Shown here piece by piece: positions 1,072 through 31,873 of a stretch of DNA of 64,000 nucleotides. The stretch's first letter is position 1. Each line of letters begins with the position of its first letter. The position numbers and the translations under genes were made by a program. The notes beneath the pieces are model-generated. The model was not told the DNA's origin. It searched no databases and saw only the letters and a list, made by a program, of their open reading frames with translations. Location: the IMG/VR virus record IMGVR_UViG_3300027917_000019, positions 32,001-96,000 of that record. One strand, written 5' to 3'. The stretch is from a virus.

Positions 1072-1375
1072 TAAGACAGTATGGCTTGAGTGTAAGTGCA
1101 GCGTACCTGAGCATGCGGTTCGTGTTTCATTGGCCAAGTGGGGCGGCCGTGAAGATGACGTAGAGTTGTGGATTGAACCGCAGCTCAGGCTCGCTGACGT
1201 TGGATTTTTCAAGAGAGTTTGGTGGGCAATCAAGATTTTGTTCGGGTATGATCCTGCTTGTTTCACTGAGTGTATCGTTTCTGAGGAATCTCTTGACGAG
1301 TTGTCTACAATCATTGTATCTTACAGGTTGATTAGGAAGTTGAGAAAAGCCCGAGAAGGAAAGTCTAGCCGATAG
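1064..1375 (+). CDS. hypothetical protein; stop codon lies inside tRNA-Ser
   Basis: Start overlaps the HNH stop; CxC...H motif; TAG stop. Confidence 0.7.
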   Translation: MTDKTVWLECKCSVPEHAVRVSLAKWGGREDDVELWIEPQLRLADVGFFKRVWWAIKILFGYDPACFTECIVSEESLDELSTIIVSYRLIRKLRKAREGKSSR

Positions 1376-1450
1376 TTGGCGACGGCAACGGTTTGCTAAA
1401 CCGTCGAGGATGAAAGTCCCTTATGGGTTCGACCCCCATACTTTCCGCCA
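1358..1450 (+). tRNA. tRNA-Ser(GCU)
   Basis: GGAAAGT/ACTTTCC-GCCA; ACGGT-TT-GCT-AA-ACCGT; long variable arm. Confidence 0.9.
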
Positions 1451-1454
1451 TTCT

Positions 1455-1560
1455 GGAGGGGTAACTCAGTGAGCGTTTACGTAATCATGAGTGCGTTGCG
1501 CGTGGTAGAGTATCGGGTATTTAACCCGGAAGTCGCTGGTTCGACTCCAGCCCCCTCCCC
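1455..1560 (+). ncRNA. tRNA-like RNA with a 33-nt insertion in the D-loop
   Basis: Perfect acceptor GGAGGGG/CCCCTCC, D stem ACTC/GAGT, anticodon arm TCGGG-TATTTAA-CCCGG, T arm GCTGG-TTCGACT-CCAGC; insert 1471-1503. Confidence 0.8.
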
Positions 1561-1583
1561 TAACGTTTGATAGTGAGGGTGAT

Positions 1584-1934
1584 ATGATTAGTGATAAGAC
1601 CATTTCTGCCGTAGTGTCTAAGGCGATGGAGCAGCATGCAAAGAAGGTTGCAGCCTCAGCAGTAGAGGGTGCAATTGAGCGTAAGGTAAAGGGCCTCATC
1701 GACGAAGAAGTTGATAAGCAACTAAAGAATCTGCAAAAGACAATTGCAGCTGAGGTACCTAAGGCCCTCAAAGCGTATCTACACACGAAGACAGGCGATA
1801 GGTATAGTGGTAAGAAGACTCCCCTACAGCGAGCAATTGAGCGTAAGATTAGGGTAAAGGATCTTGACGCGGCTGTTGATGAATTCTTCAATGGATATGA
1901 ACTAGCGTTTGTAGAGTCAGAAGAAACTGAATAG
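1584..1934 (+). CDS. hypothetical helical protein
   Basis: 116 aa ORF with SD GAGGG; TAG stop. Confidence 0.7.
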   Translation: MISDKTISAVVSKAMEQHAKKVAASAVEGAIERKVKGLIDEEVDKQLKNLQKTIAAEVPKALKAYLHTKTGDRYSGKKTPLQRAIERKIRVKDLDAAVDEFFNGYELAFVESEETE

Positions 1935-3572: not shown

Positions 3573-3769
3573 ACTTTGATATCGTGGCTATTACTCGACA
3601 GGCTGAATCTCGGGGGTGGAAAGTAAAGCCAACTAAGAGCGGTCATTACTGTTTCTTGGCTCCTGACAAGAGTATTCGGCCAATATATGTCTCATCTACT
3701 CCTAGTGATTGGAGAGCTATTCACAAGATTAAGGCACAGTTTCGGCGGGCAGGGTTGGAGTTGAGTTGA
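3569..3769 (+). CDS. HicA-like small RNase-fold protein
   Basis: AESRGWKV...KSGHYCF...STPSD.RA...FRRAGL pattern. Confidence 0.65.
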   Translation: MNFDIVAITRQAESRGWKVKPTKSGHYCFLAPDKSIRPIYVSSTPSDWRAIHKIKAQFRRAGLELS

Positions 3770-3939
3770 TGAACACCAAGGATGTTAAAAAACACGGGGA
3801 TCCGTTGCCATGTTGTAATGGTTACATCTACTATGACGGCCGCTGTGGTGATGGTCCGATACCAATCCACGAAAAAACGTGTCCTGTCGGCAAGCGCGAG
3901 GAGGCTGAGTGGGCATATTGGAGTCGCGAGCGCAGATAG
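3769..3939 (+). CDS. small Cys-rich protein, 56 aa (not in ORF track)
   Basis: TGATG overlap with the previous stop; MNTKDVKKHGDPLPCCNG...HEKTCPVG...; TAG stop. Confidence 0.55.
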   Translation: MNTKDVKKHGDPLPCCNGYIYYDGRCGDGPIPIHEKTCPVGKREEAEWAYWSRERR

Positions 3940-6872: not shown

Positions 6873-8483
6873 ATGGCAAATCAGCAGCTTTTCAGCAACA
6901 AGGGTAAGACCCCTAAGACCGATACCGTAAACCGTGCTGGCGGAAAGGCGTATGAGCTAGAGGCGAAGGCCGCTCTTGCGCAGTACGCTGCAACGGGAAT
7001 GTTGGGATCTACCTTCTACGCGAAGGCAGAGGACCATCTTGATGCTGTCTTGGAGCTTGCAAAGGCAGTTCCTCCGAAGTATCTTGCACAGGTGGCTGTG
7101 TACGCTCGCCGTACCGCTCACTTGAAGGATATGCCTGCACTGTTGCTTTCAGTGCTTGCAACTCGTGACACTGAACTTTTCAAGCAGGTTTTCCCGTTGG
7201 TTATCGACAACGGACGTATGGTGAGGAACTTCGTTCAGATCATGCGCTCTGGTGCCGTGGGTCGTACTTCTTTGGGCTCTGCTCCGAAGAAGGCTGTACA
7301 AACCTGGCTTCGCAACCAGTCTGATGAGTACATCTTCAAGGCATCTGTGGGTAATTCTCCGTCCCTTGCTGACGTGATTCGCCTTGTACACCCGCGTCCG
7401 AAGACGAAGTCTCGTGAGGCTCTTTATCGCTATCTTATTGGGCTTCCCATGAAGGGCTACAAGTCCAAGCTTCCGAAGATCGTCAAGGAATTTGAGAAGT
7501 TCAAGACTCAGAAGGCCGAGAAGCGCCAGATTCCTGACGTGCCTTTCCAGATGCTCACCGCTCTAGATCTTTCTGAGGCTGAGTGGTCTAAGATCGCTGA
7601 GAACGGTGCTTGGCAGTTTACGCGCATGAACCTCAACACGTTTGAGCGTCATGGTGTATTCAAGGACTCAAACATGGTGAAGATGATTGCCGATCGTCTT
7701 CAGGATGAGGGACTTGTACTGAAGTCTCGTAACTATCCTTACCAGATGTTTACGTCCTTCAAGGCTACTTCTTCCAAGATTCCTGCGAAGGTTCGTAACG
7801 CTTTGCAGACTGCTTTGGACCACTCTTTCAAGAACGTTCCCGACTACTCAACCATTCTTGACAAGCCGGACGTACATGTGCTTGTAGACGTGTCTGCGTC
7901 TATGGGTGGCCCGGTTTCTGGTCACGGGTACCACACCACTTCTGAGCAGGTAGCACACGTTGATGTGGGTGCTCTGTTCGCAGCGGCTATTCGCGTTCAG
8001 AACGACGAGGGTTTGGTTATTGCATTCAATAACCATGCTCAGGAAGTAGACCTAAACGCGCGTGACTCAATCATCACCAATGCAACAAAGGTTCGTGAGT
8101 GTCTCGGCGGTGGAACCGACTGCTCTGCTCCTCTGCGTTACTTGAATATCAAGAAGGCAACGGGGGATTTGGTGGTTATGATCAGTGACTATGAATCTTG
8201 GTACTCCGTTCAGTCAAAGCACCACAGCGGTCCTGGTTTCATGTCTGGGTCTACTGACATGATGCAGGAGTGGAAGAAGTACAAGAATCGCAACCCGAAG
8301 GCTGTTTTGGTTTGCATCGATACGATTCCTCAGTGCACGACTCAGGCTGTTGGAAAGGACGTACTACTTGTAGGCGGCTTCAACGACAAGGTCTTTGACG
8401 TAATCGCGACTTTCCTTGAGGCCGGTGGGGATGATACCCATTGGGTAAAGGAAATCGAGAAGACTTCTCTTAAGGTAAACTAA
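6873..8483 (+). CDS. Ro60/TROVE-domain RNA-binding protein (Rsr-like) with vWA domain
   Basis: N.AGG.AY, TFYA, YARR.AHLKDMPALL, FTRMNLNTFERHGV; vWA MIDAS DVSASM, GGGTDCS, ISDYESW, VGGFND.VF. Confidence 0.95.
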   Translation: MANQQLFSNKGKTPKTDTVNRAGGKAYELEAKAALAQYAATGMLGSTFYAKAEDHLDAVLELAKAVPPKYLAQVAVYARRTAHLKDMPALLLSVLATRDTELFKQVFPLVIDNGRMVRNFVQIMRSGAVGRTSLGSAPKKAVQTWLRNQSDEYIFKASVGNSPSLADVIRLVHPRPKTKSREALYRYLIGLPMKGYKSKLPKIVKEFEKFKTQKAEKRQIPDVPFQMLTALDLSEAEWSKIAENGAWQFTRMNLNTFERHGVFKDSNMVKMIADRLQDEGLVLKSRNYPYQMFTSFKATSSKIPAKVRNALQTALDHSFKNVPDYSTILDKPDVHVLVDVSASMGGPVSGHGYHTTSEQVAHVDVGALFAAAIRVQNDEGLVIAFNNHAQEVDLNARDSIITNATKVRECLGGGTDCSAPLRYLNIKKATGDLVVMISDYESWYSVQSKHHSGPGFMSGSTDMMQEWKKYKNRNPKAVLVCIDTIPQCTTQAVGKDVLLVGGFNDKVFDVIATFLEAGGDDTHWVKEIEKTSLKVN

Positions 8484-29734: not shown

Positions 29735-31873
29735 GTGGCTGCACCTACTACTGTCAGCGTATCAATAGATGATACTGAATATTCTCGTTATGAAGAGGCA
29801 AAGAACACGATTACAGCTACAGTTGTAATTAGTGGTGGGGCTCCTTATACTCTTGAACCTATTGTAGTGGAGCTTAGAAAGGCTCGTAGATCTCGTGACG
29901 CTGTAGTAGCCACAGCAGTGCTGTACTATAGCGGGTCTACGGATCCTCAAGAAGCTACTACAACGTTTTACCTACCAGATCTTGTAGATCAAGACCTAAT
30001 CAGTTTGATACGTCATGGTAAGTACTTTATACGTGCTGAGCATGAAACCACGTCTGCTAGTGCAGATATAGGAGGCGGCGTTGACGGAACAGTCACTCTC
30101 ATTGCAGATGAAGGAGCAATTGGAAACACATATTCAGTCGAAGTCGTTGTACCTGCCGGAACATCTCCTCTGTCGGTATCCCGTATCGGTAACGCTATTA
30201 CAGTTGACCTCGCTGTGTCTTCTGGAGTTCCTGTCGCCGGATCAAACAGAGCCATCGATATCAGGAATGCAATTATTGCTGCCTATACGGATGTAACTCC
30301 TGTTGTATCAGGAACGGGGCTAGACCCGTTGACTGCTGCAGAGGGTCCTACCTCATTCACAGGCGGGACAGACGCTATCGTCGCTGAGAGTGGTGACTTT
30401 GATATTCGTATCGTAACTGTAGAGAGGCTAAAGAAGGACTACCTGTTTGGTATTCCTTTGAAGTCCACTAACGTTAAGTTGCCTAAGTTTGATCCTGCGT
30501 CTATAACAGGGGTGACGGTAACAGAAGTCTCTGCAACGCACCCTATTGGGTTTGGAGAGCTTTCGTACAATTACTCTACAAACGATACGGCTAATGCTAC
30601 TGCGACAATAGGCTCCGGCGCTGACGGTACTGTTACAGTGACCGCAGACGAAACTGGAACTACGGCTGGGTCTGCTGGAAACTCTCTCTTTGTAGAGGTG
30701 GTGGTTCCTGCAGGAACAAGCGCGTTGAGTGCTGCTTTGGTTGGAAATGTATTGACCATTTCACTCGACGTAACTGGAGGCGTACCTAACGGAGCTGCTA
30801 ACACAGCAACGCTAGTTGCTGCAGCCATCACCGCCCTTGACGAGTTCTCTGCAACAGCTTCTGGCACAGGAGCTACGTCCTTGTCTGTTGCTGAAGGCCC
30901 CACGCAGCTTACTGGTGGGTTAACTGATACTATCCGCATGTTGAGTTGGAAGGGTGGTCCTCTTGTTTCTATACCAACTGCGGGCACATATATCCTTCGT
31001 TCTGGTTTGACGGGGCCTGCCAAGAAGCTCTCTTGCGATACTGCTGGGTCTAACGACTACATCTGTGTTAGAGTAAGGTCTACAGCCTTACTACCTTCCA
31101 ATAACGTTGCTGAAGAGCTTCTCATTGAAACACAAGAGCTAAACGACGATGCCCTTGGAAAGTACCTAGAACAAGCTATTTGTTGGTTGGAGCAGGACCT
31201 GCTAGCCGTTTATTTGGAACCTACCAACGTAGTAACAGACAGAGACCCAACTACCATTCAGTATTCAGCGGGCGTTAACTCACCGACCCCCATCTTTACA
31301 GATACGGATTACGATTTCATTGTTTCTCCGTTGACGTACTTCGTTCCTCGCTCGTCCGGTTCTTGGGTACAGATTTGGACCCCATACCGTCAGATACTTC
31401 GTGTAGACTCTTTGTTTGGGTCTATCGCCAACACCCGAGTGATTGATATTGATCTAGAGTGGATTGAGCACTCTATCCAAGGCGGGCTGATTCAGTTGGT
31501 TCCGTTTAACCAGGAAGTGGCTTTCAACTTCGTAGGTCTTATTTGGGTGAACGCGATTCGCGGTGCTGCCGAGCTTCCAAACTTCTGGCACTTCAACATG
31601 ATCGTTGGTATCCGAGACCTGTGTGGAGACATCATCGAGATCATAGCGAAGAAGGCTGCTATCGAGGCGCTGACGGCTGCAGCGTTGGCTTTCCGTCCTG
31701 GACTAGGGTCTCTTAGCCTAAGCAGAGACGGCATCTCTGAGAGCGTTTCTTACATGACCTCCCAACAGTATGGTATCTATACTGGTACTATTAATTCATA
31801 CAAGGAATGGATTACTGAAAACCAGAAACTCCTTAGAGCTAAGTATCGTGGTCTTGATTGGATGGTTGTCTAA
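29735..31873 (+). CDS. head-tail adaptor/neck protein with inserted repeat modules
   Basis: TVERLKKDYLFGIPL, GLIQLVP, LGSLSLSRDGISES; position after capsid. Confidence 0.75.
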   Translation: MAAPTTVSVSIDDTEYSRYEEAKNTITATVVISGGAPYTLEPIVVELRKARRSRDAVVATAVLYYSGSTDPQEATTTFYLPDLVDQDLISLIRHGKYFIRAEHETTSASADIGGGVDGTVTLIADEGAIGNTYSVEVVVPAGTSPLSVSRIGNAITVDLAVSSGVPVAGSNRAIDIRNAIIAAYTDVTPVVSGTGLDPLTAAEGPTSFTGGTDAIVAESGDFDIRIVTVERLKKDYLFGIPLKSTNVKLPKFDPASITGVTVTEVSATHPIGFGELSYNYSTNDTANATATIGSGADGTVTVTADETGTTAGSAGNSLFVEVVVPAGTSALSAALVGNVLTISLDVTGGVPNGAANTATLVAAAITALDEFSATASGTGATSLSVAEGPTQLTGGLTDTIRMLSWKGGPLVSIPTAGTYILRSGLTGPAKKLSCDTAGSNDYICVRVRSTALLPSNNVAEELLIETQELNDDALGKYLEQAICWLEQDLLAVYLEPTNVVTDRDPTTIQYSAGVNSPTPIFTDTDYDFIVSPLTYFVPRSSGSWVQIWTPYRQILRVDSLFGSIANTRVIDIDLEWIEHSIQGGLIQLVPFNQEVAFNFVGLIWVNAIRGAAELPNFWHFNMIVGIRDLCGDIIEIIAKKAAIEALTAAALAFRPGLGSLSLSRDGISESVSYMTSQQYGIYTGTINSYKEWITENQKLLRAKYRGLDWMVV

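Follow-up and report, generated by a model that had tools for sequence, protein, structure and literature searches.

The genome of an uncultured phage carries, directly behind a tRNA gene, a sequence that can be folded into a tRNA cloverleaf and that has a strongly enlarged D loop together with an unusual anticodon loop. This raises the question whether the encoded RNA still works as an adaptor in translation, whether it is a tRNA gene on its way to decay or whether it is kept for its tRNA shape. The window, i.e., the whole stretch of DNA that was analysed, comprises 64,000 nucleotides; positions refer to the window unless they are given as genome positions or as positions on another contig.

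The locus and its genomic setting

The phage genome is 165,819 bp long (~166 kb) and has a G+C content of 49%. According to ARAGORN it encodes 38 tRNAs for all 20 amino acids and a tmRNA. The CCA end is encoded by 35 of the 38 tRNA genes, and three bona fide tRNAs are without an encoded CCA. The peptide deformylase gene that is present besides the tmRNA points, like the latter, to a bacterial host of the phage. An ordinary tRNA-Lys(UUU) is located at genome positions 30124-30200 and a tRNA-Lys(CUU) is also encoded; with these two and with all 20 amino acids covered, a further gene of the tRNA-Lys(UUU) type is redundant.

The element is located within the tRNA array, just downstream of tRNA-Ser(GCU) (Table 1), with which it is probably co-transcribed, and a promoter-like site is found 5′ of the tRNA-Ser(GCU) gene at 1293-1322. 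The called ORF 1064-1375 overlaps tRNA-Ser(GCU) (1358-1450) with its last 18 nt. The insert in the D loop of the element was also considered as a promoter or terminator and rejected as such, because it has no such look. The 116 amino acid ORF on its 3′ side is an orphan, for which a search of 5.8 billion proteins revealed no relatives outside the phage. Judged by the Ro60 protein encoded further downstream, the nearest cultured relative is Myxococcus phage Mx1 (43% identity); the relatives of the phage Ro60 are mostly bacterial, with approximately 50% identity. No phage synteny was obtained around these Ro60 relatives and a search of Ro60-based loci in viral contigs yielded no homologue of the element.

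Table 1. Positions of the element, its parts, the neighbouring genes and further tRNA-like or Y-RNA-like sequences.
Feature	Sequence	Positions	Strand	Remarks
tRNA-Ser(GCU)	window	1358-1450	+	ends 4 nt 5′ of the element
tRNA-Lys(UUU)-derived tRNA-shaped RNA gene (the element)	window	1455-1559	+	105 nt up to the discriminator C73; cloverleaf
33-nt insert	window	1471-1503	+	separates D-loop positions 16/17 from G18; GTG repeat at either end
Anticodon loop UAUUUAA	window	1518-1524	+	A33 instead of U33; UUU in register; A37, A38
CUA in place of CCA	window	1560-1562	+	follows C73; single substitution away from CCA
116 amino acid ORF	window	1584-1934	+	3′ of the element
Phage Ro60 (TROVE + vWA)	window	6873-8483	+	5.3 kb downstream of the element
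Three tRNA shapes	L002	1763-1833, 1838-1921, 2376-2442		genome 27763-27833, 27838-27921, 28376-28442
Four Y-RNA-like elements	L002	1927-2590		genome 27927-28590; ~5 kb upstream of the element, interleaved with tRNAs
Viral tRNA-like family with a D-loop hairpin	L245	1645-1737	-	further members on L258, L255, L282, L243, L247, L267 and ~18 more contigs

The element is a complete cloverleaf with an insert in the D loop

Direct reading confirmed the four intact stems of the original prediction, with 21 of 21 stem pairs present: 7/7 Watson-Crick pairs in the acceptor stem (1455-1461 with 1552-1558), 4/4 pairs in the D stem (1464-1467 with 1508-1511), 5/5 in the anticodon stem, including one U-G (1513-1517 with 1525-1529), and 5/5 in the T stem (1535-1539 with 1547-1551). 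The tertiary nucleotides U8, A14, G15-C48, G18 G19 and A58 are in place, as is the T loop UUCGACU. The element keeps all that the body of an L-shaped tRNA requires, namely the minihelix of acceptor and T arm, the elbow of G18 G19 with the T loop, and U8, A14 and G15-C48. Its lesions are confined to the D loop, the anticodon turn and the CCA end, and the stems are spared.

The D loop comprises 40 nt, compared to the canonical 7-11 nt; the D loops of 350 strict tRNAs used for comparison have 6-11 nt. The GTG repeats that flank the insert are located at 1469-1471 and 1502-1504. The insert itself is predicted to form a hairpin of 4 + 5 bp with an 8-nt loop (pair probabilities about 0.7). Its removal results in the standard D loop AGUGGUA, as had been claimed, and makes ARAGORN recognise a 73-nt tRNA-Lys(UUU). 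The intact element is not called by ARAGORN and is below the Rfam gathering threshold: the tRNA model RF00005 reaches 21.2 bits (threshold 29) and aligns only to 1489-1558 in a shifted register.

The anticodon loop with A33, the discriminator C73 and the missing CCA were all read from the sequence as predicted. T33 is present in 135 of 135 ARAGORN tRNAs of the phage and its relatives, and in 675 of the 692 strict cloverleaves whose D loop is normal. In addition, a U32-A38 pair is predicted within the anticodon loop at 0.95. The 5′ strand of the acceptor stem, GGAGGGG, consists of purines only, a feature found in only 33 of 1,479 tRNAs, nearly all of which are tRNA-Tyr or tRNA-Ser; lysine tRNAs usually have another discriminator than C73. 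The nearest paralogue of the element is the tRNA-Asn at genome position 28966. The differences between the stems of the two are compensatory, which argues for a long past of the element as a structured RNA.

Comparison of the scaffold and the insert hairpin with chance

The fold of the whole element is the cloverleaf plus the hairpin, with −43.2 kcal/mol and a z-score of −3.56 (0 of 200 shuffles were as good). A strict search that required a 7-bp acceptor stem, U8 and a T arm found 25 sites in the genome, compared to 0.1 per simulated genome; the cloverleaf scaffold of the element is far beyond chance. Two of the 25 sites are missed by ARAGORN, the element and a tRNA body at genome positions 150165-150334. 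The insert hairpin alone is ordinary when compared to dinucleotide shuffles, of which 57-66 in 200 were equally good (z = −0.3 to −0.6); its fold hence does not speak for a function. The proposed alternative pairing of UGAGU in the insert with ACUCA in the D stem does exist; it accounts for approximately 25% of the predicted ensemble and lies 1.1 kcal/mol above the minimum. No further copies of the insert were found in the phage genome, and its interpretation as a repeated element was rejected on account of this single occurrence. The element is 100% identical in three independent metagenome assemblies of other samples (L003, L004 and L005), and it is thus not an assembly artefact.

Search for relatives of the element

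Diverged homologues of the element were found neither in Mx1, nor in 31 IMG/VR relatives that were picked by their capsid protein (60-78% identity), nor in pattern scans of the viral collection. A covariance model (R1) run on Mx1 and the 31 relatives identified only ordinary tRNAs of 71-76 nt, and megablast and blastn searches against cultured phages matched the neighbouring tRNAs and not the element. Patterns composed of the exact anticodon and T arm, or including the element's own D arm, yielded no homologue in viral contigs. A pattern combining the 3′ half of the D arm, the A33 loop and the T loop had 0 matches in 2.9 million viral contigs; the U33 version of the D-arm/T-loop pattern had at least 113 in the same contigs. 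In metagenome contigs the A33 pattern matched nine loci. A covariation search had been suggested in the original prediction; only identical copies of the element and no diverged ones were found, and an insert structure kept among homologues was not seen. As a consequence there is no covariation, and conservation and covariation of the element are unproven.

Lys-type tRNAs of normal length with the A33 loop UAUUUAA were observed on L229, L231, L232/L233, L235, L236 and L237, mostly in virus-like tRNA arrays. Most of them have one acceptor mismatch (6/7), which in two is located at pair 1-72.

Other cloverleaves with an insert in the D loop

A 152-nt tRNA shape on contig L234 (3277-3428, minus strand) carries an insert of approximately 78 nt at the D-loop site used in the element and has the same anticodon loop, UAUUUAA. 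All of its stems are intact, CCA is encoded and ARAGORN does not call it. It lies 6 nt 3′ of a tRNA-Gly in a phage-like tRNA array, on a contig with genes for a dNMP kinase, thioredoxin and PTH2. Proteins common to this contig and the source phage were not detectable, and the Pth2-like proteins encoded near the two tRNA shapes have no detectable relation. This locus was recovered by a pattern that required the A33 loop. In a second, unconditioned scan the anticodon loop was left free, and only the common D arm, split by 12-42 nt, and the T loop were required. It matched 58 viral contigs and at least 120 genome contigs, for which we estimate about 0.3 and about 2 matches by chance, respectively. 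In many matches a whole tRNA is preceded by a 5′ tRNA fragment, and a filter for intact stems was then applied. A scan for longer gaps (43-73 nt) found only such 5′ fragments followed by a full tRNA, and no true inserts.

As a side observation, tRNA genes with duplicated 5′ starts were found on L349, L394, L398, L389, L397, L391, L441, L465, L450 and other contigs. In these genes the first ~15 nt, from the 5′ acceptor strand to the AG of the D loop, are repeated in tandem one to three extra times just ahead of the remaining tRNA sequence. Such genes are many; they come from bacterial MAGs and from viruses, and the repeats could be due to slippage, recombination scars or assembly artefacts.

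Nine tRNAs with a D-loop insert are archaeal and belong to DPANN lineages, Nitrososphaerales and unclassified archaeal MAGs. Their inserts are 22-43 nt long and located at the site of the element's insert, and all nine have normal U33 loops. Non-canonical introns in the D loop of archaeal tRNAs are known, for example from the pre-tRNAs of Aeropyrum pernix (PMC3241643), and the nine inserts fit such introns.

Among the viral cases, L270 and L248 have 34-nt D-loop inserts and anticodon loops with A33 (UAGGUAA and UAUGCUC, respectively), and L289 is an imperfect case. The only bacterial case found is L361 (7274-7379, minus strand), from a Parcubacteria (CPR) MAG. This tRNA-Glu(UUC)-like gene has a 35-nt D-loop insert and G33, and it is located between the 23S and 5S rRNA genes, where it may be a processing spacer. 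The same genome encodes a normal tRNA-Glu(UUC) elsewhere, and all of its 40 tRNAs have U33. A counter-example to a link between D-loop insert and loss of U33 is the viral tRNA-Lys(UUU) on L253 (about 3694-3780, plus strand), the 22-nt D loop of which contains a GGC-GAAA-GCC mini-hairpin and the anticodon loop of which is normal. A viral tRNA-like family of approximately 25 contigs has a D-loop hairpin of 17-22 nt, the stem of which shows compensatory substitutions (Table 1). Its members have UGAA in the anticodon loop, often C37 and an extra base before U8; 6/7 acceptor positions are paired, some have a CCA end, and the match to the Rfam tRNA model is weak. This family is apparently uncurated.

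U33 is absent in about three of the six non-archaeal families from the unconditioned scan, compared to a background of ~2% of the 692 strict cloverleaves, which by our arithmetic corresponds to a binomial probability of roughly 2e-4. Because of the few cases and the post hoc filtering for intact stems this enrichment is only suggestive of a link between D-loop insert and U33 loss that would hold in viruses and bacteria and not in archaea. The element, L234 and L270 have in common an all-purine 5′ acceptor strand and CGG at positions 28-30, and these shared features suggest that the three may be related to one another. For a provisional viral and bacterial class we consider four intact stems and 14 nt or more inserted between AG and GGUA of the D loop, as seen in the element. 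As further features of this class we consider an anticodon loop without U33 or with a pyrimidine at 37, and redundancy. U33 is replaced by A33 in the element, L234, L270 and L248 and by G33 in L361; the element and L361 are redundant, since their genomes also encode a standard tRNA that has their anticodon.

Further tRNA shapes and Y-RNA-like genes in the phage genome

Three tRNA shapes located upstream of the element (Table 1) have acceptor stems of 7 bp without any mismatch and encode CCA, and their anticodon arms are 5-nt, oversized or collapsed. The tRNA body at genome positions 150165-150334 has an anticodon insert of 104 nt. Besides the element the genome holds at least four anticodon-defective tRNA shapes, and the phage keeps several tRNA bodies that are unable to decode.

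Four Y-RNA-like elements are present in the same upstream region. They have in common a terminal stem of the type GGUGA...UCACC and the motifs GATTACATC and TTTTGYC, and they align weakly but over the full length to YrlA/YrlB (17-19 bits). In the tRNA array of Mx1 a YrlA-like match of 32 bits was observed (L001 3255-3383). The Mx1 sequence furthermore contains a 66-nt CCA-ended set of mini tRNA-like hairpins that overlaps a small annotated CDS (L001 3718-3783) and an unannotated tmRNA (L001 4732-5109).

Discussion

Tentatively, and with a confidence that stays slightly below even, we regard the element as a supernumerary gene of the tRNA-Lys(UUU) type that has been turned into a retained tRNA mimic which does not decode or barely decodes. 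A second tRNA-Lys(UUU)-type copy would have gained the 33-nt piece at D-loop position 16/17, A33 and CUA for CCA. These three changes strike sites that are required for a working adaptor, U33 being the nucleotide on which the U-turn of the anticodon loop normally depends. The RNA is probably cut out by the RNase P and 3′-end processing that acts on its neighbours, and would then most likely be a competitor or decoy for a host factor that recognises tRNA-Lys-like bodies, for instance a tRNA-cleaving defence nuclease. Alternatively, it could serve as a carrier, as a stable RNA with the shape of a tRNA. U33 has been lost repeatedly in independent cloverleaves that have a D-loop insert and are perfect otherwise; random decay is unlikely to be the reason, as it would not pick position 33 repeatedly. 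If on the other hand these cases are homologous, their features have been kept across great divergence. Independent recurrence and deep homology thus both point to a retained mimic. A tRNA decoy for host anticodon nucleases was already among the original proposals; of these, the reading as a decoy or mimic survives on account of the recurrent U33 loss and of the redundancy with tRNA-Lys(UUU), and the decoy part is what we infer beyond this.

A decoy or competitor is the most concrete mechanism because of three published results. Recognition of tRNA-Lys(UUU) by the PARIS nuclease AriB involves both the anticodon stem and U16-U17 in the D loop, and the same paper suggests that viral tRNAs could be inhibitors (PMC12409363). 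Loop changes allow phage tRNAs to evade anticodon nucleases (PMC10264068), and an insertion between D-loop positions 16 and 18 rendered the E. coli tRNA-Tyr undetectable or unstable in cells (PMC5397188). In comparison with the tRNA-Lys(UUU) of phage T5 and its interplay with AriB (PMC11464382, PMC12409363), the element is altered at the very surfaces that AriB reads, the anticodon arm and D-loop position 16/17. However, the nuclease-evading tRNAs of T5 are standard 76-nt decoders with U33, and the element carries a 33-nt insert and A33. A33 is no general shield against nucleases, since the yeast gamma-toxin cuts an anticodon stem-loop with A33 better and not worse (PMC2275089). Against a mimic count the failure to find diverged homologues in Mx1, the 31 relatives and the viral pattern scans, the ordinary insert hairpin and the lack of the encoded CCA that the other mimics of the phage keep; one insertion plus two point changes are also what is expected of a young pseudogene. 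The tRNA cluster of phage T4 includes the genes of two stable RNAs without a decoding role, species 1 and 2 (rnaC and rnaD), which are processed together with the tRNAs; as a parallel to the element they are a lead only.

The main rival, a serious one that we nevertheless consider rather unlikely, is such a pseudogene: an extra tRNA-Lys(UUU) copy with a 33-bp insertion between copies of a 3-bp GTG repeat, a U33A change and CUA for CCA would be drifting without function. It is in line with the redundancy of the element, with an insert hairpin that is not special among shuffles and with a 3′ end only one substitution away from CCA. No conserved homologue was found in Mx1, the 31 relatives or the viral pattern scans, several metagenomic Lys-type tRNAs with A33 have 6/7 acceptor pairs, and phage arrays often contain tRNA fragments that are partial or duplicated. 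What speaks for a retained mimic instead are the 21 of 21 intact stem pairs, the recurrence of U33 loss in independent and otherwise perfect D-loop-insert cloverleaves, and the other non-decoding tRNA shapes that the same genome keeps. Next comes the possibility, to which we give distinctly less weight, that the RNA is an attenuated adaptor. It would be processed, receive CCA from the host, be charged and read AAA/AAG poorly, and could be a nuclease-resistant spare tRNA-Lys or a weak mistranslating tRNA. The anticodon register reads UUU and is followed by A37 and A38, the three bona fide phage tRNAs also do without an encoded CCA, and the Tyr/Ser-like acceptor GGAGGGG together with C73 hints at a mixed identity. 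Natural tRNAs without U33, the bacterial tRNA-ProX (A33) and the Candida tRNA-Ser(CAG) (G33), decode with reduced efficiency (PMC11415595). Like the element they are otherwise intact tRNAs in which A or G at position 33 is tied to weakened decoding, but their D loops are normal, and A34, A15-A48 and G21 of tRNA-ProX are absent from the element. Against a charged adaptor stand the destabilisation in vivo of a tRNA with an insertion at D-loop position 16/18 (PMC5397188), the predicted U32-A38 pair, which would shrink the anticodon loop to 5 nt, and the lack of a CCA-adding enzyme in the phage.

The remaining explanations have far less to recommend them. Excision of the 33 nt by an endonuclease and a ligase, which would yield a 72-nt tRNA, had been proposed originally as a D-loop intron. 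Deletion of the insert indeed gives a standard D loop, and archaeal tRNAs carry inserts of 22-43 nt at exactly this site and have normal anticodon loops; like the element, the archaeal D-loop-intron tRNAs show a full cloverleaf with 20-45 nt between the 5′ AG and GGUA of the D loop. However, they have U33 and reside in cells with a splicing endonuclease, whereas the element has A33, no CCA and belongs to a phage of bacteria. Splicing endonuclease (PF01974), RtcB (PF01139), for which a search of the rest of the genome had been suggested, RNA ligase (PF09414) and CCA-adding enzyme are all absent from the phage, 33 nt are too short for self-splicing, and A33 and the missing CCA would persist in the spliced product, which makes an intron very improbable. 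A script for bulge-helix-bulge motifs found none spanning the junctions, although the same strict script missed most of the archaeal positive controls. The original prediction had also considered the element as a non-standard, Y-RNA-like partner of the phage Ro60, the gene of which is located 5.3 kb downstream. Bacterial Y RNAs (Rfam YrlA) include a tRNA-like module, and a tRNA mimic in a genome that encodes Ro60 would resemble YrlA (RF02553) in this respect. Yet YrlA and YrlB covariance models found no match in 1300-1700 at E-values up to 10, and the two ends of the element pair as a plain 7-bp acceptor stem and not as a Ro-binding helix. With their terminal stem, their YrlA/YrlB alignments and their motifs, which are absent from the element, the four upstream Y-like genes are better candidates for Ro60 partners, and there is hardly any likelihood left for this proposal. 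Least credible of all is a cis-regulation of the ORF 1584-1934 through pairing of the insert loop with its start region. UAAUCAU in the insert is complementary over 7 nt to AUGAUUA at the start codon, but nothing sets this duplex apart by its energy: 34.5% of the shuffled inserts were as good, and the site ranked 2294 among 4,000 windows; this regulation was rejected on statistical grounds.

In a wider sense, there might be a distinct class of tRNA mimics, with an arm at D-loop position 16/17 and no U33 turn, that bacterial viruses and at least one member of the CPR keep, a generalisation that we put forward as a doubtful one. Such RNAs would be recognised by every tRNA-processing and tRNA-binding protein and be useless to the ribosome, and their role in phages would be that of a decoy or an inhibitor against the defence nucleases that cleave tRNAs; the element would be the member of the tRNA-Lys(UUU) type. 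Phage tRNA arrays are now mainly read as replacing host tRNAs that are cut by defence nucleases. A tRNA-shaped RNA built not to decode would, if true, add a second phage tactic, mimicry or competition. RNAs of this kind escape the standard tRNA finders. The combination of D-loop insert and U33 loss, seen in viruses and bacteria and not in archaea, where the insert is an intron, may offer a simple rule by which they could be recognised in sequences. If the element is only a dying gene, it would call for caution in the annotation of tRNA arrays.
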